A stretch of DNA of 64,000 nt from an uncultured Candidatus Saccharibacteria bacterium (GCA_964456235.1 CAYWDX010000002.1:78061-142060), one strand, 5' to 3'; positions 2,669 through 24,701 are shown, numbered from the stretch's first letter. The notes: generated from the sequence alone by a model not told the origin. A program made the numbers and translations.

Positions 2669-3412
2669 TCAGCATCGTCTCCCAAGCGCGTAAGGACCTC
2701 TTCTCCTCCCACGCTTACGCAACATCTCGCCACTTCCCACTTGGGTCCGAACGAAACCCAATGCCTGCTTGAGCTTCAGCTCTCTCCCGACGATCCCTGC
2801 GGCGAGCGAGCATTGCCGCGCCGGTGGAAGATTTGCGAGAGCAATGGCGACCTGAAACTTCAGTCGCTTCGCGTCGGGTCGCGAGGGATCCATCAGTGCC
2901 TGAACTCGCGGATCCAGCTTTAGCAAGCTCAGATGCTGGTGAACCCACGCCGGCGAGTGCGCGAATATTTTGGCGAGTTTCTCCAGGACTTTCGCGCCAT
3001 ATTCCGATGTCGGTCCAAAGTGGGACAGCTTGATCCGCTGAATAGCCCGTGCTGTCTCCAGCGGGGTGTGGCCAGCGCGACCAAAGTTAGGCACGACCGA
3101 CTGAAGAAATTGATCATCGGCGGACGCTACTGTTCGCACCTCCGCAATCATGGTTGGGATATTTTTTAAGCCACAGGCCTGAAAGCGACGCTCCCCATCG
3201 ATCAACTCGAACTGATGACTCGGATCATCAGAAATCGGACGAACGCAGACCGGCGTCCTTTGTCCAATCTCTGCAATACTTTCCGCCAAGTTCCTGAGCT
3301 CCTCTGCGTTGAAATGTTTCCTCGGCTGATCTGCAAAGGGCCTGATCAACCGACGCTCGATCTTCACAATCGCTCCGACTTGGACCACTGATGGTGCTAC
3401 TCCCGCCGCCAT
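2669..3412 (-). CDS. ParB-like nuclease-domain protein (ParB/Srx N-terminal domain), stand-alone
   Basis: 247 aa; IRPFADQPRKHFNAEELRNLAESIAEIGQRTPVCVRP...ELIDGERRFQACGL is the ParB N-terminal/Srx fold. Shorter than canonical chromosomal ParB and has no parA neighbour. Confidence 0.7.
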   Translation of the reverse strand: MAAGVAPSVVQVGAIVKIERRLIRPFADQPRKHFNAEELRNLAESIAEIGQRTPVCVRPISDDPSHQFELIDGERRFQACGLKNIPTMIAEVRTVASADDQFLQSVVPNFGRAGHTPLETARAIQRIKLSHFGPTSEYGAKVLEKLAKIFAHSPAWVHQHLSLLKLDPRVQALMDPSRPDAKRLKFQVAIALANLPPARQCSLAAGIVGRELKLKQALGFVRTQVGSGEMLRKRGRRRGPYALGRRC

Positions 3413-3567: not shown

Positions 3568-4986
3568 TTATGAAGCCCTCCTCACAATACAAAACGGGGT
3601 CATCTCGTCAGATTGCCCAAGCGGATTATCCTTGAAAAGTTGGCCGATGAATTTTTCTGAAATTTTTCGCGTGGATTTGCCGAGCGAGAATACTCCGAGA
3701 TAATTTGCGTCGAGGATGACAACGTCGTGGCCGGTATGTTCTTTGATGCGCCGAGCGACCCCGTTCGGGTCCCCGGGGGCCAGCTTAGCCGAGTGCGCAT
3801 ACTTCAGTATAGTGAAGGACATCGGGCAGTCGATTGACTTAGCTTGCTTTCCGCAGAGCCGATAGAACATTCCGCCGATGCCGAGGGGGCGCGTCACGGC
3901 GGCTATCGCGGCGGCGGCGAAAACGCGGGGATACCCAACTTCTTCGATTAAGAGCTGCATAGCGAGCGATGTACCGTGGCCGAAGCCGTGGAATGCGCTT
4001 GTCCCGTAAAAGGTACCGACGTTGCGGGCGAGAAATCGCGCAAGGCGCGTCGGCTTAATATCGCCGAAATCGACGATCCGGTTCTGGGTGACGCAGAGTG
4101 CTTTTTCACTTATAAAAATAATATCGTCAGGCAAAAGGTAGGGGCTCACATACGCCTCGATAAGCGGCATGATGTCGGTGTCCTTTTCCGTTATGAGGCG
4201 CGTTTTCACCGGCAAGCGAAGGTAGGTGTCGTGATCGATATCGGTTTCGATTTTCTTGCCGGGATTAGCAGTAAACTTTCCCGAGGGTGGACGGGCGGGT
4301 GCTTCGAATTCTTCAAATGAAGGTTTTTCGCCGCGGAAAAGCGCGAACAAGGTTCCGAGGAATTGATAGATAGCCGTACCGTTTTCACCGAGCTTTGTGC
4401 GAGAGTTTAAGTTCTCCGTCGCTTCACTATAGAGAATATGCGCTTGGTCAATATCCGCCTCACTGAAAGCGGCTTCTACGGTCGGCGCACCCTCCGCCAC
4501 CATCCGCACAACAACCGAGCCGTCTCCCTGCGGCGTATAGAGAATTTCAATCCCGGTTTTTTTCTTCAGTTCTGTGTAGGTCTGCGTCTTTTCAACGAAA
4601 TGCCTTACGACGATCGGTATTGCTTTATGATGTTTAACTTCCGTTATGGTATTTTTACCATCCACGAATACGACGATGGGGTTCAGATCCTTAAGCTCGG
4701 AGGATTCGAGCCATACTTCGGCAAGAATAATTATCTTATCGCCCGGCTGGAAGTGATGCGCTGGCGGTCCATTGAGGCAGATGTCGCCATTGCCGCGCGG
4801 GCCGGGAATGACGTAGGTTTGCCAAAATACGCCATTGCGCAGATTAGTGATATTAACATACTGGAACGGCTTCATGCCGCTCGCCTCAATCAAAGCTTGG
4901 TCTATGGTTATGGAGCCGATGTAATTCAGATCGGCTTCGGTCACGGTGGCCCGATGTATTTTTGCCATGCAGGCGCGAATGAGCAT
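3568..4986 (-). CDS. Fusion protein: N-terminal aspartate 1-decarboxylase (PanD, pyruvoyl-dependent)-like domain plus ~350-aa C-terminal domain of uncertain function (possible CofE/F420-0:gamma-glutamyl-ligase-like fold)
   Basis: 472 aa; the N-terminal ~115 aa (MLIRACMAKIHRATVTEADLNYIGSITIDQALIEASGM...ICLNGPPAHHFQPGDKIIILAEV) aligns to PanD, including the Gly-Ser self-cleavage position (YIGSITID). The C-terminal part carries FISEKALCVTQNRIV (resembles the CofE VVSKAEGR region) and GVFSLGKST (GxxxxGKST). Confidence 0.65.
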   Translation of the reverse strand: MLIRACMAKIHRATVTEADLNYIGSITIDQALIEASGMKPFQYVNITNLRNGVFWQTYVIPGPRGNGDICLNGPPAHHFQPGDKIIILAEVWLESSELKDLNPIVVFVDGKNTITEVKHHKAIPIVVRHFVEKTQTYTELKKKTGIEILYTPQGDGSVVVRMVAEGAPTVEAAFSEADIDQAHILYSEATENLNSRTKLGENGTAIYQFLGTLFALFRGEKPSFEEFEAPARPPSGKFTANPGKKIETDIDHDTYLRLPVKTRLITEKDTDIMPLIEAYVSPYLLPDDIIFISEKALCVTQNRIVDFGDIKPTRLARFLARNVGTFYGTSAFHGFGHGTSLAMQLLIEEVGYPRVFAAAAIAAVTRPLGIGGMFYRLCGKQAKSIDCPMSFTILKYAHSAKLAPGDPNGVARRIKEHTGHDVVILDANYLGVFSLGKSTRKISEKFIGQLFKDNPLGQSDEMTPFCIVRRAS

Positions 4987-5012
4987 GTCGCTACTATTCT
5001 ATTGCGCCACTA

Positions 5013-6668
5013 TCACTTCTGCAACGGTATGCTCACATGGAACGCACTCCCCTTCCCTTCGCCCGGAGATTCCGCCCAGATTTTCCCTCCGTGGGCCTCT
5101 GCAATTTTCCGCGCAATAAACAAACCGAGACCAGTACCGCGAATCTGCTTCTTGATGCGTTCGTCGCGCACAAATTCTTCAAAAAGATGCGGGATGAGCT
5201 CTGCCGGAACTCCCACGCCCGAATCAGCAACGCTTACGGTTGCCGTCCCGATCGTAGCGCCCGGCGCGGCGCTCGCTGCCCCCGGCGCGAGCTCTTCGGT
5301 GAGCGTTACGTGAACAAAACCGGTTGGCGTGTATTTGATCGCGTTGTCGGTCAGGTTCTGGATCACCTGCTTTAGTTTTTCCGCATCCGCATTGACCCAA
5401 ACCGAATGGTCCGGCGCCTGGAGCGTGAATTCGAGCTTCTTTGTTTCGGCGAGCGGCTTCAGCAGATCAACCATGCCGGCGACCATTGGCGTGAGGTCGG
5501 TTTTCGCAAATGAATATTCCATTTTACCTTCTTCCACTTTGCGCACGTCGAGGAGCGTGTTGATGAGGCCGATGAGATCGTCGGCCGAGCGGCCAATTTT
5601 TGCGAGCGACTCTTTTACCTTCGGCTCGACGGCGCCGTAGGATCCATCGATGATCAGCGAGGTGAACCCTTTTATCGCCGCAAGCGGTGAACGGATCTGG
5701 TGAGACGCGAGCGACAAGAGTTCGCTCTTGAAATGCGAGAGCTCGTCGAGCTGGGCGTTCTTTTCTTCGAGTTGCTTATCCAACCGCTCGAGCTCTTCGC
5801 GCTGTTCGACCTCTTTGCGGACGCTCTTGATCAAGAAAACGCTGAAAACCAACGTGAGGGCAAACACAGCGGCTCGAAATAGTGTGGTCGCCAGATTTCC
5901 TGAAAGGACGACTTCTGCGAGAGAAATAATAGAGAGGATGAAGGCGAGGATTTCGGTGGCGATCACCTTCACATTCAGCAAATGGTGACGCAGCATCGCA
6001 TACGAGGTAAGCGCGACGAACGGGAAAAGAAAGAGCGCGCCAAATTTTATATAGTGGGTGTCTTCAAAAAATGCGGGTAACACAAAATTAAAAATGAGGA
6101 TGAGGCCAACCATGAGCATGAAGCCAAGCAGGAAAACGCGCAGAGCTTTCTTTTCGTCGGCTTCAGCTTTGCTCACGCGCCGAAGCAAAAAGATGATGCC
6201 TCCGATATTCAAAAATCCGACGATCGCTGCAAAGAAAATAATTCCTGGCCCATTAGTAACGTGCGCAACAGGACCCTCGGTAGATCCGGCCACTTGAGAA
6301 AATATAAGTGGCGTGAGCGTGAGCGCAGCGGCAACCATGGTCAACGGAACGAGGAGGCGCGAAAAATAGGGCGAGAATTGGGCCTGCTCGCGCGGAAAAA
6401 TATATGAAAGGGCGAATGTGAAAAATGAAGCGAGAACGCCGAAGAACAGCACGAGGCGCAGCAACCAGAACGACGCCTCTGATGATGAAACTTGATAAGA
6501 AGAATAATTGACAATACCCCAGATGCTCGCGCTCACGGCAAGCGCGAGGAAAAAGCGACTCGAAATGCTTTTAGAATTGCTGAAAAAGGTGATGAAACCA
6601 AGGATCACCATTCCGGCGGTCGCAACTCCGACTGACAGCAAATCGAGGTTTCCAAAACTTATTCCCAT
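5013..6668 (-). CDS. Sensor histidine kinase with multi-TM N-terminal sensor domain
   Basis: 551 aa; about 7-8 predicted TM helices, coiled-coil linker, HisKA (SHQIRSPLAAIKGF), HATPase_c (NLTDNAIKYT...GTGLGLFIARKIAEAHGG). A Gly/Ala-rich low-complexity insert lies in the ATPase domain. Confidence 0.85.
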   Translation of the reverse strand: MGISFGNLDLLSVGVATAGMVILGFITFFSNSKSISSRFFLALAVSASIWGIVNYSSYQVSSSEASFWLLRLVLFFGVLASFFTFALSYIFPREQAQFSPYFSRLLVPLTMVAAALTLTPLIFSQVAGSTEGPVAHVTNGPGIIFFAAIVGFLNIGGIIFLLRRVSKAEADEKKALRVFLLGFMLMVGLILIFNFVLPAFFEDTHYIKFGALFLFPFVALTSYAMLRHHLLNVKVIATEILAFILSIISLAEVVLSGNLATTLFRAAVFALTLVFSVFLIKSVRKEVEQREELERLDKQLEEKNAQLDELSHFKSELLSLASHQIRSPLAAIKGFTSLIIDGSYGAVEPKVKESLAKIGRSADDLIGLINTLLDVRKVEEGKMEYSFAKTDLTPMVAGMVDLLKPLAETKKLEFTLQAPDHSVWVNADAEKLKQVIQNLTDNAIKYTPTGFVHVTLTEELAPGAASAAPGATIGTATVSVADSGVGVPAELIPHLFEEFVRDERIKKQIRGTGLGLFIARKIAEAHGGKIWAESPGEGKGSAFHVSIPLQK

Positions 6669-7705
6669 TGGATTTCTGGTGGTCGTTTATGCGAAACGGC
6701 GGTTGGCGGACCAGAGTGCCCGATGCGGAACGCAACGGCAAGAATCCCGTTCGTGGTTTTGAACGATTCGCGCAACCGATCATAGGCACGATCAATGATT
6801 TCTCGATCGAGCGCTGAAAAATGTGCTGCGTTTCCTAAGTTCGCTTGTTGCCATAAGAAAAGAACGCCGGTGATTAACTGAAATCCCAAGCCGAGTTTCG
6901 CCGCGCGCAACCAAATATTTTCCACCATCTTCCCCGCTTCAATAAAATCTTGGTCATTGTCTTTTACGGCGATCACGCCGATCAAGCCGGCCGATGAAAT
7001 CGTTTTCGCGTTTTCCTCATAAATTTTTTTAGGAATTTTTAATTTGGAAAGGAACTGCGCCGTCTTCCATTTTCTCAATAATTTGAAGATGGAAGATTTT
7101 GGCGGTTTCACCTCCATGGTTCGCACATATAAACCTTTGCGAGTCTTTTGATGCTCTTCTTCCCATAAAATTTCTTCGAAAAGGAGGCGGTGCAGCAGTT
7201 CATTTTGGAATGTAACGAGGATGTCGAACGCCAAATTTTCTGCCACCGGCTGCAGCTCCCCTTCAACGATCGAAAGCTCGCACGATGGGAATCGCTGAGC
7301 TTCTTCAAAGAGATATTTCTTGTCGTGCTCGCCGATCGGGGTTGTTTTAAAGGGGCGTCGGTTCGTGTGCCGATGAGAAATGGCCGAGGCCAAATTGTGA
7401 GTCACGACTTTTTCTGCCGGCCTCAATTCGAAGGAGGCAAAAACATTCCCGCCGGGAAACACGGTGACATGCGGCGCGAAACCTTGCTGGCGGGCCGCGA
7501 TTTCCATATTTTCAATAAGCGCTCCGTGAGCGACATAGGTGCCGCGATTTCGAAAATTCATCACCGCATGGTCGCGTTCGGGCAAACCAATCACATCAAT
7601 TTTGTTCCCGTTCCCGCGAACAGCAAACTTCCACGGCTGCGAATTGCTCCCCGACGGCGCCAGGTTCCCCGCCTCTATGATTGCCTGAATTTTTTCTTTT
7701 TGCAT
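6659..7705 (-). CDS. Tandem nitroreductase-family (FMN oxidoreductase-fold) protein
   Basis: 348 aa; nitroreductase signature APSGSNSQPWKF at the N-terminus and a second degenerate nitroreductase-like half. Overlaps the HK start by 10 nt. Confidence 0.75.
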   Translation of the reverse strand: MQKEKIQAIIEAGNLAPSGSNSQPWKFAVRGNGNKIDVIGLPERDHAVMNFRNRGTYVAHGALIENMEIAARQQGFAPHVTVFPGGNVFASFELRPAEKVVTHNLASAISHRHTNRRPFKTTPIGEHDKKYLFEEAQRFPSCELSIVEGELQPVAENLAFDILVTFQNELLHRLLFEEILWEEEHQKTRKGLYVRTMEVKPPKSSIFKLLRKWKTAQFLSKLKIPKKIYEENAKTISSAGLIGVIAVKDNDQDFIEAGKMVENIWLRAAKLGLGFQLITGVLFLWQQANLGNAAHFSALDREIIDRAYDRLRESFKTTNGILAVAFRIGHSGPPTAVSHKRPPEIQWE

Positions 7706-7712
7706 TAAGAAA

Positions 7713-8843
7713 CTATGCCTGCGGAGGCGGACCGCTCATCATTTTCATGAATCGCTCGAGTTCCCGTTTGCGGAGCTGCAATTCGTCCGCATAGTTTGGG
7801 TCAAGCACCGATTCAAGATTAATTTCAGATTTTCCTTCGGTTACCGGTTGGCCGAGCGCAATGCGTCGCACGAGATACGCAATGATCACGCCGGAAAGCG
7901 TTGCGGCCGAAGCGAGCTGTGGCCAGGAATAAAGCGTTTTCCCAACCTCTTGCACCGATTGGAGCACGCGCGAGGGCACGAGCGACACGTCAATAATTTT
8001 TGCCATCGCTTCAAACATTTTTGGAGGCGACCTCTTGATTTCGTCGATATCCATCCCCTCGAGTGCTCCGTAAAATGGCTTCAGATCAGGGCGGAGGTCA
8101 AAGCGCTCAACGTCCACAATCACACTATCGCCATTATCCGTCACCATCACGACCGGCATGTTCCGTTTCTTTGCCCCCTCGCGCATTTTCACCTTCATTG
8201 CAATATCGTCCAATTCCTCGACGAGCACATTTAAACCATTCAAGAACTCATCGATGTTCGCCGGCGTGATGCCGTCAAGATAGCAGTGGATCTCGGCATA
8301 CGGATTGAGTTGGTAAAGGTACCGCGCGATCACTTCAGTCTTATTGATGCCGATCTGCGTGAAGTCGAAACGCATTCGATTTAGATTGGTTGGCGAAACC
8401 GTGTCGGGATCCGCTAGTTTAATAACCCGAGCGCCGCCCATGAGGGCGAGCGTCACTGCGCCATGACTCCCCACGCTAAGCCCCGCCACACCAACCGCGC
8501 AGTTATAAAACTTCTCTTGCTCCTCTTTATTGATGATATTGCGATTGCGTGCAGTGCGAATTTCCTGGTGCAGCGCATCGTCGAGATAGTGGACCAGCGT
8601 TTCGTTCCAAGGGAAAAACACCCACTTGCCACAGATCTCAAGCGGCTGCCCGCCGGAATGCTCTTTAATAAAGGCCTCGAATTCTGCCTGGTACTGCTTA
8701 TTGAACCGGAAACGTGGGTTATGGATCAGAAAGACGTCCTCAAGTTGCTCACGATAGACATCAACAACAGCATGGGGAGGATGCGTCTTTTTAATCTCTT
8801 CAAGAGAAGTTTGCTTGGGGTCAAAAATGATGGGTTTTTCCAT
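7713..8843 (-). CDS. E1-like / ThiF-MoeB family adenylyltransferase-fold protein
   Basis: 376 aa; Rossmann/ATP motif NCAVGVAGLSVGSHGAVTLALMGGARVIKLADPDTVSPTNLNRMRF matches the ThiF/MoeB/E1 superfamily. Only 7 nt separate it from the nitroreductase gene. Confidence 0.75.
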   Translation of the reverse strand: MEKPIIFDPKQTSLEEIKKTHPPHAVVDVYREQLEDVFLIHNPRFRFNKQYQAEFEAFIKEHSGGQPLEICGKWVFFPWNETLVHYLDDALHQEIRTARNRNIINKEEQEKFYNCAVGVAGLSVGSHGAVTLALMGGARVIKLADPDTVSPTNLNRMRFDFTQIGINKTEVIARYLYQLNPYAEIHCYLDGITPANIDEFLNGLNVLVEELDDIAMKVKMREGAKKRNMPVVMVTDNGDSVIVDVERFDLRPDLKPFYGALEGMDIDEIKRSPPKMFEAMAKIIDVSLVPSRVLQSVQEVGKTLYSWPQLASAATLSGVIIAYLVRRIALGQPVTEGKSEINLESVLDPNYADELQLRKRELERFMKMMSGPPPQA

Positions 8844-8853
8844 GTGTTCATAA

Positions 8854-10353
8854 TTATAACTTTTTTACCCATTTATGCTTATTGCCAAGCATGAAGTACT
8901 TGGGGTGCTCATATTCCCAAAACGCGATCCTCACGAGGGGGCGGCCCCTCACCTGATCCGAAAGCTCTCGAAATTCCGAACTCTTCCGGCGCAAAGTTTC
9001 GACAATGTGGCGCTCGGCCATTTTTGCATACTCCCGCTTGAGCTTATGATTCCGCCTTAATTCCAAATTAATTTCCAAATATTGATTACGGCGAGTGTCA
9101 TATTTGGTGATCATCGTAAATTTGCTAGTCAGGAAGCGGGTTAAATTTTTATGAAAGAGTGCCGATTTCACAAATTCGGGGAAGATAAGGACGCCATAGA
9201 GTGTCGTCGCAAGGTTTTTCCGTTCATATACATAGACCAGGGGCAATTGATTGATGTAGGGCGTAATCCTCTCCCGCTTTGCGGCAACCCTAAGCGAAAT
9301 ACCGTTTGCAGAAAGCACCTCGTTGAAATCGTCGAAGCTCAACAAACCGCCGTGATCCCCTGATTGATAGCGCACGAGGGGCGCCGGACTCCGACCCGTC
9401 AGGAATAGTTCGCCCTCAACACACTCAAAGTTAACGAAATGTGGGATGTATTGCGCGAGCGTGGGGGTTTTTAATGTGCCACCAAAAAGGCCCTCAAAAA
9501 TTTTGCCGCTATCGTAAGCCAAGCGGCGTCCGAGAATCGTGAGAGGCGTTTCGACGGCAACAGCCCCGAGCTCCGAAGTCCCATAGGTATTCATCGTATC
9601 CGTAAAAATATTTTTGACCGCCTTTTTCTCGGCAAGGTAATCCCGAAATTCTTCGGTAAACGCCTCGCCAGTGAAGACAGCGCGCAAGTTCATCGCCCGG
9701 ACATTAATCCCATCCTCAATCGCATTGTCAATAATATCTTTCACGAATGGCGGGTAGCCGGCGATCACCACTTGCCGAAACCGCGGCGCCAGGTTTTTTA
9801 AAATTTTTGTCACCTCGATTTTGTTGAGGCCCGGAGAAATGACCGATATAGGAAGCTTGCGCATATTGCTCGCAAGATATGCTGCCGCATGAATTCCCAT
9901 TCCAGCCGACCAGACCCCCATGCCGAAGGTAATGATAAAGAGCGTGGGCCCCTCAATGGTTTTTTCGTTGTTACGGAAAAAATTTTCGATGATGACCTCC
10001 CTCACCAAATCGGACTCGTTGTCACGTTGGAAATAAGTCGCTTCACCGGTAGAACCCGATGTTGCGTGAATGGTTAATGGTTTTTTAATGCTACCATCCC
10101 AAAATAATGATTCATAAGGATAGGCGTGCAGGTAATGTTCTTTGCTCGTCGGTGGAACCAGTTCGAAATCGCGCAAGGTTTTTACCTTAGCAGGATTCAC
10201 CCTCGCCTTCTTCAAAAAATCTTTATACGCGGGCACACGCTGTGCTGCTGCATGGAACAGTCGAAGGGTTTCCCGTTCCCCCGTCTTAACCCAAAACGCG
10301 CTTTTCTTGCGCTTGATGTCGTGTATGGCGAGATCGGGATTCATATGTTCCAT
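8854..10353 (-). CDS. PaaK/CapK/F390-synthetase-like adenylate-forming ligase (ANL superfamily)
   Basis: 499 aa; TIHATSGSTGEATYF matches the PaaK A3/P-loop motif (SSGTTGKP), with an N-terminal region like PaaK (…YPYESLFWDGSIKKPLTIHATSG). Confidence 0.75.
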   Translation of the reverse strand: MEHMNPDLAIHDIKRKKSAFWVKTGERETLRLFHAAAQRVPAYKDFLKKARVNPAKVKTLRDFELVPPTSKEHYLHAYPYESLFWDGSIKKPLTIHATSGSTGEATYFQRDNESDLVREVIIENFFRNNEKTIEGPTLFIITFGMGVWSAGMGIHAAAYLASNMRKLPISVISPGLNKIEVTKILKNLAPRFRQVVIAGYPPFVKDIIDNAIEDGINVRAMNLRAVFTGEAFTEEFRDYLAEKKAVKNIFTDTMNTYGTSELGAVAVETPLTILGRRLAYDSGKIFEGLFGGTLKTPTLAQYIPHFVNFECVEGELFLTGRSPAPLVRYQSGDHGGLLSFDDFNEVLSANGISLRVAAKRERITPYINQLPLVYVYERKNLATTLYGVLIFPEFVKSALFHKNLTRFLTSKFTMITKYDTRRNQYLEINLELRRNHKLKREYAKMAERHIVETLRRKSSEFRELSDQVRGRPLVRIAFWEYEHPKYFMLGNKHKWVKKL

Positions 10354-10355
10354 AA

Positions 10356-10751
10356 TTACCGCGTGATCAAACTCTGAATTCCCGACACCAATTTTTCGAT
10401 TTCCGTTTTACTGAAAATGGGCACACCGCGCAGATTTCTTGTCGCGAGCGTTCGTTTCGCTGGATCCATTTCGCCCCACGGATCATGCAAACTCGTAAAA
10501 AAGGCTACTTTAATGCCGCGCGTTTTCGGATTTTCGTGGAGCGCGAGCGCCAAATCCCAACCAGATGGTCCCGGCGGCATGTAGATGTCACTCAAGATGA
10601 GATCGGGCTGCAACGACTCAGCTTTTTTGAGGGCGTCGAGGGTTCCATGCGCCATCGCGGTCTCAAAATTTGCCGTCTTCAACTTGGCGGACGCAATGTC
10701 TAAAAACATATCTTCGTCATCAACAAGGAGAACGAGCGGGATGCTCCTCAT
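10356..10751 (-). CDS. Response regulator, receiver domain only (CheY-like)
   Basis: Receiver motifs LVLLVDDED...LILSDIYMPPG...KVAFFTS. The ORF track starts at 10805, but an ATG at 10751 (MRSIPLVLLVDDED) sits immediately downstream of an extended -10, so the shorter start is proposed. Confidence 0.75.
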   Translation of the reverse strand: MRSIPLVLLVDDEDMFLDIASAKLKTANFETAMAHGTLDALKKAESLQPDLILSDIYMPPGPSGWDLALALHENPKTRGIKVAFFTSLHDPWGEMDPAKRTLATRNLRGVPIFSKTEIEKLVSGIQSLITR

Positions 10752-10758
10752 ACCATTT

Positions 10759-10767
10759 ATTATAACA
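10759..10767 (-). promoter_or_regulatory. Extended -10 (TGnTATAAT) promoter, apparently driving a leaderless RR-ligase-E1-nitroreductase-HK-PanD operon
   Basis: The minus strand reads TTGTTATAAT AAATGGT ATG; the -10 ends 7 nt before the ATG at 10751. Confidence 0.45.
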
Positions 10768-10796
10768 AAAAAGGGCCTGCGAATTTTCGCAGGCCC
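10765..10796 (-). terminator. Intrinsic terminator downstream of the AstE/AspA-like gene
   Basis: Stem GGGCCTGCG (10773-10781) / CGCAGGCCC (10788-10796), loop AATTTT; the minus strand follows with UUUUUUGUU. Confidence 0.55.
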
Positions 10797-10811
10797 GTCG
10801 AACAAACTTCT

Positions 10812-11759
10812 TTACAATCCGAGCACCTCCGGCGGATGGGCGAGGAACATGATCTCCTCGTTCCACCGGATCGGCTTCACGCCCGGCTGCGGCATGAGCG
10901 CGCAGCAGTCGGCGGGAGCCACGATCGGCCCTTGGCTGCCGTTTGCGATGACTTGGCCCTTGGTGATGAGCTCGAAATTCTGAATCGGCTTCACGAGCTC
11001 GTACCCGGCATCCGGATACCGCACGGCGTCAAAGACCCGGTAAACCCGCTGCTCCCGCTTCGGAGCGAGATGCTCCCGATCGATCACGCCCAGCTTTGCG
11101 AGGAAGGTTTCCGCGCACGTTACGGCGCGCGGGAACGTCTCGGAAGCCTCGTGCCCACCAGCTTCGATGCCGTATACCGCGGCGCGGCCGTCGCCATAGA
11201 AGTAACACGCCGGCTTTCCCGACTGGACTTTCTCGATCCCGGCGAGTACGGTCTCGATGGGGAACCGACGGACCATGCCAGTATCGCTCCGATCAAGCGC
11301 GACAACCATGGGCAGCGTATTCGAGAGCGTGCTGTGGATGTCGAGCGCGTAATCGAATCGCGCCCAAATCCGCTGCAGCTCATACGCCCGCCGGACTTCG
11401 TACCGCGCGTCATCTTTACTCAAGACGTCCGGCAGGCGATTCATGTTCAGATCCGTGAAACGAGCCTGGATCTTTCCCTGGTCGTCGCCCGCATCCAGCG
11501 CCTCGAAATAGCGGCGCATCGCTGCGGGGTTGTTGAGGACAAAGATCACCGTCCCCTTCTGAATGTTCCAGGCATGCCGGCGACGGAATTCGTTGTACAC
11601 CGCGAGTCCGGCCGGTTCGTTACCATGGGTCCCGACGGTGATTCCTACCACCGGACCGGGAGCACCAGAGTCGAGCATCCATACTCCCTGCGCACCGTCC
11701 CGACTTTCGCGCAAGGCGTCGAACGCTTCGCGAAGCATCACTTGGGTTTCACGGTCCAC
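10812..11759 (-). CDS. Succinylglutamate desuccinylase / aspartoacylase (AstE/AspA) family zinc hydrolase
   Basis: 315 aa; GITVGTHGNEPAGL (HGNE zinc-ligand motif of the AstE_AspA family). Confidence 0.8.
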   Translation of the reverse strand: MDRETQVMLREAFDALRESRDGAQGVWMLDSGAPGPVVGITVGTHGNEPAGLAVYNEFRRRHAWNIQKGTVIFVLNNPAAMRRYFEALDAGDDQGKIQARFTDLNMNRLPDVLSKDDARYEVRRAYELQRIWARFDYALDIHSTLSNTLPMVVALDRSDTGMVRRFPIETVLAGIEKVQSGKPACYFYGDGRAAVYGIEAGGHEASETFPRAVTCAETFLAKLGVIDREHLAPKREQRVYRVFDAVRYPDAGYELVKPIQNFELITKGQVIANGSQGPIVAPADCCALMPQPGVKPIRWNEEIMFLAHPPEVLGL

Positions 11760-11829
11760 GTGAACCTCCGTTGGTGTTGGATTTTACTAATGTAAAAGAA
11801 CGTTGGCATTATACCTCTATAATATTTAT

Positions 11830-11861
11830 TTGTCAAGTGTGTGACATATGCGTTGTATAAT
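11830..11861 (+). promoter_or_regulatory. Candidate promoter in the divergent region (TTGTCA ... TATAAT, 20-nt spacer) for the DsbA-like/DsbB pair
   Basis: ttgtca 11830-11835; tataat 11856-11861. The spacer is long, so this is weak. Confidence 0.3.
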
Positions 11862-12254
11862 AGCGTAGTGAACAAAATACAGATTTGGACCTGGATCTTG
11901 GTTGGTATCGCGGGCGCAATGTCGGTATTCGTTTATATAAAAACGCTGCCGCCGCCCGCCGGGAAATACGATTCATTTGCAAAATGCATCGCGAATACTT
12001 CAACCACCTTTTACGGCGCGTTCTGGTGCCCGCATTGCGCAGACCAAAAACGCGCGTTTGGTGATGCGGCAAAATATTTGCCGTACCACGAGTGCTCGAC
12101 GCCCGACGCGCAACACGAGCTCACCTCGTGCGTGGATGCGGGCATCACGCAATATCCAACGTGGCGCTTTCCCGATGGATCGAAGCTCGTCGGTGAGCAA
12201 TCGTTCGAAACACTTTCTGCAAAAACCGGCTGCCCGTTGCCGAGCTCACCGTAA
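11841..12254 (+). CDS. Membrane-anchored thioredoxin-fold thiol:disulfide oxidoreductase (DsbA-like, CPHC active site)
   Basis: N-terminal TM helix, then FYGAFWCPHCADQKRAF (CPHC). The start is uncertain: ATG 11841 overlaps the putative -10; a GTG at 11868 is the alternative. Confidence 0.65.
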   Translation: MTYALYNSVVNKIQIWTWILVGIAGAMSVFVYIKTLPPPAGKYDSFAKCIANTSTTFYGAFWCPHCADQKRAFGDAAKYLPYHECSTPDAQHELTSCVDAGITQYPTWRFPDGSKLVGEQSFETLSAKTGCPLPSSP

Positions 12255-12284: not shown

Positions 12285-12842
12285 ATGACGCCGTTCGTCC
12301 AAAACATTACGAATATTTTTTCTTTTTTTGTCCTACTCGGCGATATGGTTGCGGTCGCGCTCTTCGCGGTCCTGATCACGCCGCTCAGGCGCACACAGAG
12401 CGGCCGGGCGCTCACGAACTTTATTGGCGAGCGAGCGGTACTGCTTTCTTTTCTCATCGCGCTCGGCGCAACGCTCGGCAGCTTGTTTTATTCAGAGATC
12501 GCGGGTTTCGCGCCCTGCGTCCTTTGCTGGTGGCAGCGCATCTTCCTTTATCCGCAAGTTATTTTGCTATTCGTCGGCTTTATGAAAAAAGATCAGCTGA
12601 TCCGCCTTCATTCTATTATTCTCTCACTCGTCGGCGGCGTTATCGCTCTTTACCACACGTTCATCCAATTCGGCGGCGAGGCGATCGTCCCCTGCAGCGC
12701 CACTGGCCCCAGCTGTACGACACTTTATTTTCTGGAATATGGGTACATAACGATCCCGACGATGTCGCTCACGGTTTTTGCGCTTTTACTCCTCATCATG
12801 CTCACGCCGCACCCTAAGGATAAGCAGGTGAACGAGCTTTAA
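12285..12842 (+). CDS. Disulfide bond formation protein B (DsbB/BdbC family)
   Basis: 185 aa, 4 TM; first Cys pair PCVLCWWQR (BdbC-type CxxCWxQR), second pair PCSATGPSC. Confidence 0.75.
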   Translation: MTPFVQNITNIFSFFVLLGDMVAVALFAVLITPLRRTQSGRALTNFIGERAVLLSFLIALGATLGSLFYSEIAGFAPCVLCWWQRIFLYPQVILLFVGFMKKDQLIRLHSIILSLVGGVIALYHTFIQFGGEAIVPCSATGPSCTTLYFLEYGYITIPTMSLTVFALLLLIMLTPHPKDKQVNEL

Positions 12843-22985: not shown

Positions 22986-24701
22986 CTAAACCGAATAGAT
23001 CTTCACCGCAACCGTCTTCCCCTTCACCTTGACCTCGCCCAGTTCACGCGCAGGAACCGGCTCATGCAATTTCTCCCTGGTCGCCTCGGAAATGATGATG
23101 TGTGACTTATATTCCTTATTGAGGCCCTCGAGGCGCGAAGCGGTGTTCACCGAATCGCCGATCACCGTATAGTCGAAGCGTTTTTCTGAACCCATATTGC
23201 CCACGATCGCATTTCCCGTGTGAATGCCGACGCCGATATCCACATGCGGGAATCCAGCAGCGTTCCATTTTTTTTGAAGGCGCCCGAGGCGCTGGATCAT
23301 CCCCTGTGCCGCGCGCACCGCGCGGTCGGCATGGTCCGGTTGCTCGAGGGGAGCGCCCCAAAAGGCCATGATCGCATCGCCAATGAATTTGTCGACGACG
23401 CCGTCGGTCGCTAAAATTTCTTCGGTCATTTCGGTGAAGTATTCATGCAAAAGTTTTGCCAGCAGCTCTGGATCGGTGCTCTCGGTGATGGTCGTAAACG
23501 AACGGATGTCAGAAAAAAGGATGCTTACTTCTTTTCGCTCTCCGCCGAGCGACAAGCTTTTGGGATTTTTGAGGATCATGTCAAGCACGGCCGGAGAAAA
23601 ATAATTTTGGACGGTGCGGCGGATGCGGCGCTTCTCCTGATCTGACGCATACCATTCCGTGATGCCATATTGCGTGAACGCCCCAGCGATGAGTATTTCG
23701 ATCCAAAAATAAGGAAGCAGCAGGAGCCGCTGGGCCATGAAATAGCTCGCAAGCGGTGGGGCAGCCAGGGCGACGATCGCGAGCGCAACGGCGCCCCGCA
23801 CACGCAGACGGGATAAAAGAAAGGCGACGAAGAGTGCAAAAAGGGCGCCCCCCAGATGCACGGCGATCGGTGGCAGCGCTTTGAGCGGCCGCTGCAATAA
23901 AATATTATCCAAAACGTTTGCGTGCCATTCAACGCCCGCCATTACTCCGCTGCCCATGGGCACGGCAACCACGTCATGGAGATCGCTCGCCGTTGCGCCA
24001 ATCAAAACAAAGGCATTTTCCAAACGCTCGCGCGGGATCGCGCCGCCCTTCGGAGAGCTGTCATTCAGAAAATCGCTTATTGAATAGGTCGGGAACGTTC
24101 CCGCGCCTCCCGCAAAATTGACTTCATTCGCGTCGCCTGCATCAATCGGCGCCGCATTCGCCATTGCCGCGAGTTGCGTGGCAAATGGCGTTAGCTGGCG
24201 GGCAACGGGGAACGGTCGTGCCGTGCCATCAGCTGCAAGTTTCACCGCGACGCTGCCCGTGCGCACATTCGCCGGCGACAAAAATTCTGCGAGCGGATAT
24301 ATAAAAGAGGAGCTTCCATCCGAATGCATGACGGGTTCTATCGGCAAAACAATCGGAAATTTTGCGCCGGCGATGGCGCTCGCGAGCACTGCATCATCGC
24401 GGGCATTGCTTTTATCGCTGAAGTTAATATCAACTCCTACGGCGCGCGGTGAAAACTGCGCAAGCCTACTCAAGACGTTCGCCTCAACGCTGCGAGGCCA
24501 CGGCCAGCGGCCGACCGCTGCAATACTTTTTGCGTCAATCGCGAGAATAACGATGTCGGGGTGAGGAGCGTGCGGGTGCGTGAAAGCGTCGGTACTTTGG
24601 AGGTCGAGTTTTGACACCCAAGAAAAATTCCCTACGGCGACAAGAACCCCGGCCACCAGCATAGTGAATGCAAATTTTCGGAAGGATGATGCAACAGACA
24701 C
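22986..24701 (-). CDS. CHASE2-sensor class III adenylate/guanylate cyclase
   Basis: 571 aa; N-terminal TM and periplasmic CHASE2-like domain, further TM helices, C-terminal cyclase domain (EVSILFSDIRSFTTITE...FIGDAIMAFWGAP). Confidence 0.8.
   Translation of the reverse strand: MSVASSFRKFAFTMLVAGVLVAVGNFSWVSKLDLQSTDAFTHPHAPHPDIVILAIDAKSIAAVGRWPWPRSVEANVLSRLAQFSPRAVGVDINFSDKSNARDDAVLASAIAGAKFPIVLPIEPVMHSDGSSSFIYPLAEFLSPANVRTGSVAVKLAADGTARPFPVARQLTPFATQLAAMANAAPIDAGDANEVNFAGGAGTFPTYSISDFLNDSSPKGGAIPRERLENAFVLIGATASDLHDVVAVPMGSGVMAGVEWHANVLDNILLQRPLKALPPIAVHLGGALFALFVAFLLSRLRVRGAVALAIVALAAPPLASYFMAQRLLLLPYFWIEILIAGAFTQYGITEWYASDQEKRRIRRTVQNYFSPAVLDMILKNPKSLSLGGERKEVSILFSDIRSFTTITESTDPELLAKLLHEYFTEMTEEILATDGVVDKFIGDAIMAFWGAPLEQPDHADRAVRAAQGMIQRLGRLQKKWNAAGFPHVDIGVGIHTGNAIVGNMGSEKRFDYTVIGDSVNTASRLEGLNKEYKSHIIISEATREKLHEPVPARELGEVKVKGKTVAVKIYSV

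Follow-up and report, generated by a model that had tools for sequence, protein, structure and literature searches.

What does the compact run of minus-strand genes at positions 11759-3568 of this DNA make, and which of these genes belong together? The window, by which we mean the whole stretch of 64,000 nucleotides from an uncultured Candidatus Saccharibacteria bacterium (GCA_964456235.1 CAYWDX010000002.1:78061-142060), carries seven open reading frames (ORFs) there, all on the minus strand in our ORF call, which agrees with the coordinates of the initial annotation. That annotation, made from the sequence alone, had taken the seven genes for one undescribed amide-forming pathway. We herein show that the conserved block is the part from 10751 to 5013, which encodes a receiver, a PaaK-like ligase, a ThiF-like protein, a nitroreductase and a seven-transmembrane (7TM) histidine kinase. 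With moderate confidence, and by analogy with characterised homologues, we propose that this cassette most likely makes an oxazolone (azlactone) or a dehydro-N-acyl-amino-acid molecule and is coupled to a dedicated membrane sensor. Thus, the idea of an amide-forming small-molecule pathway is kept as the best reading, its chemistry being deduced from homologues, and is stripped of the two outer genes, those for an AstE/AspA-type deacylase and a PanD fusion. Domains of the window proteins were called with Pfam and NCBIfam models, and folds were assigned from AlphaFold2 (AF2) models searched with Foldseek; the domain assignments made earlier all proved correct, that of the ligase by profile search and structure and that of the C-terminus of the PanD fusion as a CofE fold. 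The names of homologues point to Patescibacteria (candidate phyla radiation, CPR), the closest named ones being Kaiserbacteria-like and other Paceibacterota metagenome-assembled genomes.

Gene-neighbourhood conservation had been listed as a check of the original reading and, run on relatives, it revealed that the five-gene core recurs. A scan of one genome per species placed ligase relatives at 440 places, in records that are nearly all from Patescibacteria (Kaiser-, Wolfe-, Lipton-, Harrison-, Brenner-, Staskawicz-, Wildermuth-, Nomura-, Magasanik- and Roizmanbacteria), and 80 loci were fetched. Of these ligase-anchored genome loci, 37 are long, extending 7 kb or more to either side; ThiF was found in 34 of the 37, the kinase in 34, the nitroreductase in 33 and a receiver in 14. 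The reverse test, anchored on ThiF in 20 long metagenome loci that extend 6 kb or more to either side, returned the ligase, the nitroreductase and the kinase in 19 each. The two-component pair is indeed embedded in the enzyme cassette, as the initial annotation had stated. Three ligase homologues, 70%, 53% and 45% identical to that of the window, each have ThiF (~370 aa), a nitroreductase (~350 aa) and a HisKA_7TM kinase as neighbours, along with one receiver or two, and locus L006 keeps the full gene set in a shuffled order. Since the same gene set recurs across Patescibacteria, the linkage of the core goes beyond chance; the conserved unit proper consists of ligase, ThiF, nitroreductase and kinase, to which receivers are often added.

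Two types of cassette were distinguished when the window was compared with L006, L019, L020, L028, L030 and L047: the window type, with the order ligase-ThiF-nitroreductase and a TrzS-like nitroreductase, and a second type, in which a shorter, divergent nitroreductase (22-27% identical) precedes ThiF or the pair lies upstream of the ligase. The sole long ThiF-anchored locus without ligase or kinase is L153 (a 158-kb metagenome contig; ThiF at 9001-10074), whose ThiF may belong to another lineage or another system.

The ThiF-like protein and the nitroreductase both match the NCBIfam model NF005901 of the Rv1355c family, the former with 288 bits over profile positions 26-345 (next best ThiF model, 78 bits) and the latter with 162 bits over positions 374-713 (Acg family, 128 bits); the summed score of the split pair, 450 bits, is just below the 476-bit cut-off, which was set for the fused protein. 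In BLASTP, an Rv1355c-family protein of Rhodococcus is 35% identical to the ThiF-like protein (E 7e-56), and its residues 371-646 are 22% identical to the nitroreductase (E 4e-18), both matches being collinear with the fused sequence. Alignment revealed the ThiF motifs common to the Rv1355c family, GLSVG and SNLNR as well as, outside the Rossmann core, WxxYPW, RNRNxIT, DVERFD, WPQL and SGR; the TDN aspartate (D236) and the glycine-rich loop are conserved together with SNLNR, and a candidate LHR motif is kept in the Rhodococcus protein and reads LHK in the Mycolicibacterium one. Because each protein corresponds to one half of NF005901, with scores far above those of other ThiF and nitroreductase models, sequence comparison identifies the pair as a split homologue of TrzS (Rv1355c), as in OxzB and TyzB/TyzC.

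The chemistry of these homologues is experimentally established. In TrzS, the ThiF domain cyclises N-acyl tryptophan with ATP and the flavin oxidase domain desaturates the ring, with D217 implicated by mutagenesis in the use of ATP and R540 and Q651 in the oxidase (PMC12856293), and TrzS variants have shown lost cyclisation and a build-up of the saturated ring. Oxazolones are hydrolysed by acid and also react with alcohols (PMC12856293). OxzB (A0A5S3UR53; bioRxiv 10.1101/2020.06.11.147165) and TyzB/TyzC (TyzB, P95234; PMC10404671) perform the same chemistry on N-acyl tyrosine. According to a review, this type is the sole ThiF-like enzyme known to use a small molecule (PMC12596934). Hence, the statement that the gene combination matches no known pathway is outdated, as a ThiF protein with a nitroreductase-fold flavin oxidase is an oxazolone synthetase. 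The known systems are OxzA/OxzB of Pseudoalteromonas rubra, TyzA/TyzB/TyzC and TrzA/TrzS (Rv1356c/Rv1355c) of Mycobacterium, and the NasY-ThiF-nitroreductase clusters of Stieleria, Massilia and Thalassotalea, and they have been reported from Pseudomonadota, Actinomycetota and Planctomycetota (PMC12479983). The cassette resembles them in that a ThiF-like cyclase adjoins a nitroreductase-superfamily flavin oxidase, with a split like that of TyzB/TyzC. [quoted passage not shown] Thus, the acylating enzyme, the added sensor and the phylum are new, while the two core enzymes are already known. A tblastn search of plasmids returned actinobacterial Rv1355c-family proteins, and in Streptomyces ThiF genes lie beside genes for GNAT or beta-ketoacyl-ACP synthase III (KAS III).

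The ligase has no Pfam match, including none to AMP-binding, and its scores against the NCBIfam PaaK models (59-64 bits) fail all the equivalog cut-offs (646-700). Its N-terminal domain matches PaaK in a profile search of Protein Data Bank sequences (E 1e-12), and the AF2 model (predicted local distance difference test score, pLDDT, 86.7; predicted template-modelling score, pTM, 0.82) has as its best Foldseek matches PaaK1/2, BT_0428, 2-hydroxyisobutyryl-CoA (coenzyme A) ligase (HCL) and ClxA, at 13-18% identity, with E 5e-19 and template-modelling (TM) scores of 0.55-0.65 for the PaaK structures 2y27 and 2y4o. Among relatives of the ligase the P-loop-like TSGSTGE loop and the C-terminal K492 are conserved, the lysine being invariant. 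The protein is therefore like PaaK in its fold and in its adenylation motifs, and unlike it in being only 16-18% identical, ~60-70 residues longer and below the equivalog cut-offs; moreover, no paa genes were found in the window or the related loci. NatL2 (PMC7204872) and ClxA (PMC9400959, PMC12519233) are PaaK-like enzymes that form amides or esters independently of CoA in benzoxazole biosynthesis. The window ligase shares their fold, ClxA being one of its Foldseek matches, but the cassette lacks their amidohydrolase partner. By analogy with these enzymes, we propose that the ligase could act as a CoA-independent N-acyl-amino-acid ligase.

The slot directly upstream of the ligase is occupied in 33 loci by a ScyB-like amino-acid dehydrogenase of the Trp/Leu/Phe type and in 7 other loci by a HisC-type aminotransferase (e.g., L015 8931-9995 and L070 8870-9895, with 38 further loci). 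Since a swap of dehydrogenase and aminotransferase in one slot is a functional substitution, it points to an amino acid or a 2-oxo acid as substrate. No homologue of either enzyme is encoded within the 64-kb window. An ApbE flavin transferase gene lies near four of the dehydrogenase/aminotransferase loci, and the window has no ApbE. Some cassettes also carry, between nitroreductase and kinase, a gene for a ~305-aa protein with a methyltransferase-like DLGAGG motif (L085 5363-6286; also L029, L058, L078, L125, L162, L165 and L172), which has no Pfam or NCBIfam match and may be a tailoring enzyme; it loosely recalls the Stieleria clusters (PMC12479983).

Hallmarks of a two-component system are present in both regulatory proteins: HisKA and HATPase_c of the kinase exceed the Pfam cut-offs, and the receiver has an acidic pocket (DDED) and a phospho-acceptor aspartate within LILSD, with the T/S and K positions conserved as well. 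The sole sensor of the kinase is a membrane domain of seven to eight helices (~8 hydrophobic segments). Its median identity among relatives is 37%, compared with 44% for the kinase core, and conservation reaches 90% or more at W50, N54, F91, P92 and Y223, a pattern that indicates a membrane domain under constraint. Homologues of the receiver (129-139 aa) adjoin the cassette in L003, L005 and L006 and occur in 32 of the 82 loci used to tally recurrent neighbours. Pfam revealed neither a DNA-binding domain nor any other output domain in the receiver; as it has no DNA-binding domain, this regulator must act via protein contacts. CqsA/CqsS, LqsA/LqsS/LqsR and AgrBDCA are cassettes of a signal synthase and a membrane sensor kinase. 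By analogy, our cassette would be of a similar design, as it clusters biosynthetic genes with a polytopic kinase devoid of an extracytoplasmic sensor and with a response regulator; its enzymes, however, are not homologous to those of the Cqs, Lqs and Agr systems, and the likeness is one of organisation only.

Given these components, we postulate the following route. The PaaK-fold ligase would adenylate a carboxylic acid and transfer it directly onto the amine of an amino acid, yielding an N-acyl amino acid and replacing the acyl-CoA-dependent N-acyl-amino-acid synthase of the known systems. Patescibacteria are generally thought to be poor makers of their own lipids and cofactors, and a CoA-independent route would suit them. 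The ThiF-like enzyme would then adenylate the alpha-carboxylate, so that the amide oxygen could close a 5(4H)-oxazolone ring, and the tandem nitroreductase-fold flavoprotein would desaturate the C-alpha to C-beta bond. Finally, the 7TM kinase may bind the hydrophobic product, or its precursor, in the membrane and phosphorylate the receiver-only regulator.

Several observations weigh against this proposal. The N-acyl-amino-acid synthase, which is the defining third component of oxazolone clusters and is found in every described system (PMC12479983), is absent: the neighbours that recur in the 82 loci include neither a GNAT nor an N-acyl-amino-acid synthase family. A tblastn search with three actinobacterial neighbour proteins (a Streptomyces GNAT, the protein upstream of the Rhodococcus Rv1355c-family gene and the protein downstream of the Mycolicibacterium one), covering 2.18 Mb, gave no match within a cassette, a negative weakened by the fact that the Rhodococcus upstream query has no Pfam match and is unconfirmed as a TrzA homologue; the sole match of the whole search was a weak GNAT in L085, ~2.6 kb past the end of the cassette's kinase gene. 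The ligase could be a plain CoA ligase with an acyltransferase encoded elsewhere, and the nitroreductase half is merely 22% identical to its actinobacterial counterpart. The flavin oxidases of this type that are known depend on O2, yet an oxygen-free life is common among Patescibacteria; beside this objection stands the Fe/Mn superoxide dismutase encoded in this genome (995-1612). The receiver is adjacent in only ~40% of the loci, and linkage alone cannot separate the sensing of a product from mere regulation of the pathway.

A fuller interpretation goes beyond the formation of an oxazolone-type product: the cassette may be a self-contained signal synthase with its receptor, native to Patescibacteria, in which an oxazolone or dehydro-N-acyl-amino-acid autoinducer, built from scavenged acids and amino acids by the CoA-independent ligase, ThiF and the flavin oxidase, is read by the 7TM kinase. 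We advance this possibility tentatively. The literature searched contains no link between Patescibacteria and oxazolones or between oxazolone enzymes and a histidine kinase, and nothing relevant on phenylacetate-CoA ligase together with a histidine kinase.

Alternatively, the enzymes might make an oxazolone-type lipid with a structural or protective role, the kinase and the receiver only timing its synthesis or answering envelope stress. The same homology evidence that underlies our proposal applies here, and the mycobacterial authors tie oxazolones, which they found to be mainly cell-associated, to stress physiology (PMC12856293). We nevertheless regard this explanation as unlikely, given that a regulator with no DNA-binding output makes simple transcriptional control of the operon not evident, and that the kinase is tied to the enzymes in more than 90% of the long loci, more tightly than is usual for a general stress sensor.

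The cassette could also serve the catabolism or salvage of aromatic or branched-chain acids, with a true acyl-CoA ligase acting next to the dehydrogenase or aminotransferase, a kinase that senses the substrate, and ThiF and nitroreductase in an accessory redox or activation role. The nearest solved folds of the ligase are phenylacetate-CoA ligases and BT_0428, and in about half of the loci the amino-acid dehydrogenase or aminotransferase lies directly upstream, both of which would fit. However, the PaaK equivalog scores reach only ~10% of their cut-offs, the loci contain no recurrent 2-oxoacid:ferredoxin oxidoreductase, thioesterase, paaABCDE or beta-oxidation gene, and the scheme leaves no role for the pair of ThiF and flavin oxidase, the nearest characterised relatives of which are biosynthetic enzymes; a catabolic function thus appears improbable.

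Modification of a macromolecule is very unlikely. Here ThiF would activate the C-terminus of a protein or peptide, or a tRNA base, in the manner of E1/ubiquitin-like systems, MccB, thiazole/oxazole-modified microcins (TOMM) or TcdA, and the nitroreductase would serve as an azoline- or SagB-type dehydrogenase. Matches to TcdA, MccB and UBA do exist (E 1e-5 to 1e-11), as do PADLOC E1-E2 matches of at most 38 bits, but these scores are far under the 288-bit match to the Rv1355c family, and the MoeB/ThiF models reach at most 78 bits, below their cut-offs. In addition, no YcaO, E2, JAB or ubiquitin-like gene, carrier or precursor and no recurring small ORF was found in the window or the 82 loci, and no defence-system model matches a partner protein. 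The scan of the window for GG-ending ORFs gave two chance matches only, none credible as a carrier or precursor, which, together with the small-ORF survey of the 82 loci, bears out the earlier statement that no such ORF is present. Two groups of candidates were rejected in the course of the analysis: an anti-phage defence system, for which PADLOC returned only the generic E1 matches and left the partner proteins unmatched, and TOMM, ribosomally synthesised and post-translationally modified peptide (RiPP) and ubiquitin-like systems, as YcaO, carrier and precursor are all absent.

The layout of the locus (Table 1) agrees with these boundaries. The genes had been described as packed with gaps or overlaps of 3-10 nt, which holds for the gaps of 10 nt between ligase and ThiF and 7 nt between ThiF and nitroreductase and for the 10-nt overlap of the kinase start with the nitroreductase gene; the receiver/ligase gap, read from the sequence like the others, is 2 nt, and the gap between kinase and PanD fusion is, at 26 nt, outside that range. 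The terminator and the extended -10 element reported between the AstE-like gene and the receiver gene were both recovered, and the terminator marks the upstream boundary of the cassette. From its spacing, the element TGTTATAAT predicts a leaderless cassette mRNA, as far as a match to the consensus can tell. The AstE-like gene has a promoter of its own at 11836-11808, with a 12/12 match to TTGACA-17-TATAAT.

Table 1. Features of the locus and of the stand-alone CofE-like contexts (window coordinates unless a locus is named).
Feature	Position	Strand	Basis and remarks
AstE/AspA-type zinc deacylase-like	11759-10812	-	Pfam AstE_AspA_cat
Intrinsic terminator of AstE-like unit	10773-10796	-	10-bp hairpin, 8 GC pairs, then TTTTTTG
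Extended -10 element TGTTATAAT	10759-10767	-	directly after the hairpin, ends 7 nt before ATG 10751
Receiver-only response regulator	10751-10356	-	Pfam Response_reg as sole domain; 131 aa from ATG
PaaK-fold (ANL superfamily) adenylate-forming ligase	10353-8854	-	499 aa; profile search and structure
ThiF-like protein	8843-7713	-	376 aa; Pfam ThiF, N-terminal half of NF005901
Tandem nitroreductase-fold (Acg-type) flavoprotein	7705-6659	-	348 aa; Pfam Nitroreductase in two stretches
Histidine kinase	6668-5013	-	551 aa; Pfam HisKA_7TM, HisKA and HATPase_c
PanD and CofE-like fusion	4986-3568	-	472 aa; Asp_decarbox 1-114, C-terminal CofE fold
Stand-alone CofE-like context	L087 5491-8138		
Stand-alone CofE-like context	L089 5059-8164		
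Stand-alone CofE-like context	L088 4958-7095		

Hexamers resembling a -10 element lie 6-9 nt before the ATG, with no Shine-Dalgarno sequence, at both the receiver gene and the PanD fusion gene (4996-5001), and the same arrangement occurs in a relative (L001 9984-9989); leaderless initiation may be widespread in the lineage. For the PanD fusion, the hexamer is TAGAAT, 9 nt before the ATG, and a relative has TAAAAT 6 nt before its own ATG, which suggests that the fusion gene has its own transcription start. The search for terminators found none between this gene and that of the kinase, and with a terminator-free gap of 26 nt the two may be co-transcribed in the window.

The N-terminus of the PanD fusion scores 118 bits against the panD model TIGR00223 (cut-off, 106 bits), is 35-42% identical to PanD structures in Foldseek and keeps the pyruvoyl-forming Gly-Ser cleavage site G24-S25 (YIGS). 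The model of the whole protein (pLDDT 78.9) was matched by Foldseek to PanD and the CofE fold. Its CofE-like part is ~19% identical to CofE and has a Pfam F420_ligase score of 24.3 bits, under the 25-bit cut-off; since this match is weak and below the cut-off, the label 'F420-0:L-glutamate ligase' may be wrong. Stand-alone CofE-like proteins of ~350 aa, 57-68% identical among the sampled Patescibacteria homologues, also exist; of three contexts, two have a separate panD alongside, and all three have a pyridoxal 5'-phosphate (PLP)-dependent (PALP) gene. Unlike CofE, the CofE-like gene thus pairs with panD and a PLP enzyme and not with F420 genes, and the fusion of PanD and CofE-like parts in one protein is unusual compared with known PanD and CofE. 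Judging from these contexts, PanD and the CofE-like ligase appear to form a separate conserved module, possibly a beta-alanine-adding amide ligase. In L089 (5059-5865), a 268-aa protein of two tandem PanD-like repeats is encoded beside the CofE-like gene.

Among 160 related cassette loci, none contains an AstE-like, PanD, CofE-like or ParB gene. On a contig of 250 kb, a PanD fusion 73% identical to that of the window is flanked by DUF3298 and by unrelated genes, and the homologues of the AstE-like protein form a small Paceibacterota family with unrelated neighbourhoods. In the window, the AstE-like gene adjoins DsbB (12285-12842, plus strand), and since a 50%-identical relative also adjoins DsbB (L174 6370-7981), the conserved neighbour of the deacylase is DsbB and not the cassette. 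Hence, by comparative sequence context, both the AstE-like gene and the gene for the PanD fusion are best regarded as unrelated neighbours outside the cassette, and the view of the seven genes as one unit does not stand. The seven-gene chain, in which the AstE-like enzyme would free Asp or Glu, PanD would make beta-alanine and the PaaK-, ThiF- and CofE-like ligases would make a beta-alanine amide or thioester, is the least supported of the explanations and scarcely credible, as its points in favour (contiguous one-strand genes with short gaps, possible co-transcription across the terminator-free kinase/PanD junction, and an apparently intact PanD joined to a domain of amide-ligase fold) are largely refuted by a comparative context that gives it no support, namely the absence from all 160 loci, the foreign surroundings of the close PanD fusion, the pairing of the stand-alone CofE-like gene with panD and a PLP enzyme elsewhere, and the unrelated contexts of AstE-like homologues, the window copy of which is insulated by a strong terminator.

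The G+C content is 0.47-0.51 within the cassette (5500-10500) and 0.55-0.59 in the flanks (10500-12000), and across genomes the cassette is flanked by differing housekeeping genes (release factor RF-1, DnaK/DnaJ/GrpE, ribosomal protein L31, aspartyl-tRNA synthetase, AspRS). The lower G+C content together with the varying housekeeping neighbours suggests that the cassette moves within or between genomes. Besides the superoxide dismutase, the window also holds genes for an extracytoplasmic function (ECF)-type sigma factor (1759-2385), ParB (2669-3412) and a protein that joins a CHASE2 sensor to an adenylate/guanylate cyclase domain (22986-24701, minus strand).

Bacterial oxazolones came to light as late as 2020-2021. 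Patescibacteria, which make up a large share of bacterial diversity, are reduced epibionts to which few specialised pathways have been assigned. The TrzS authors note the likeness of oxazolones to signalling molecules (PMC12856293). The cassette described here, relatives of which occur in the genomes of several hundred species, ties homologues of oxazolone synthetases to a dedicated membrane kinase and, with three soluble enzymes and one kinase, offers a testable handle both on the role of oxazolones and on the pathways of Patescibacteria. It further suggests that N-acyl amino acids may be made by a CoA-independent route, and the comparison flagged a second conserved association, that of PanD with a CofE-like ligase. 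If the cassette did produce and read a signal, these ultra-small bacteria would have their first assigned system of chemical communication, be it cell-to-cell or symbiont-to-host, and it would give bacterial oxazolones their first physiological role.

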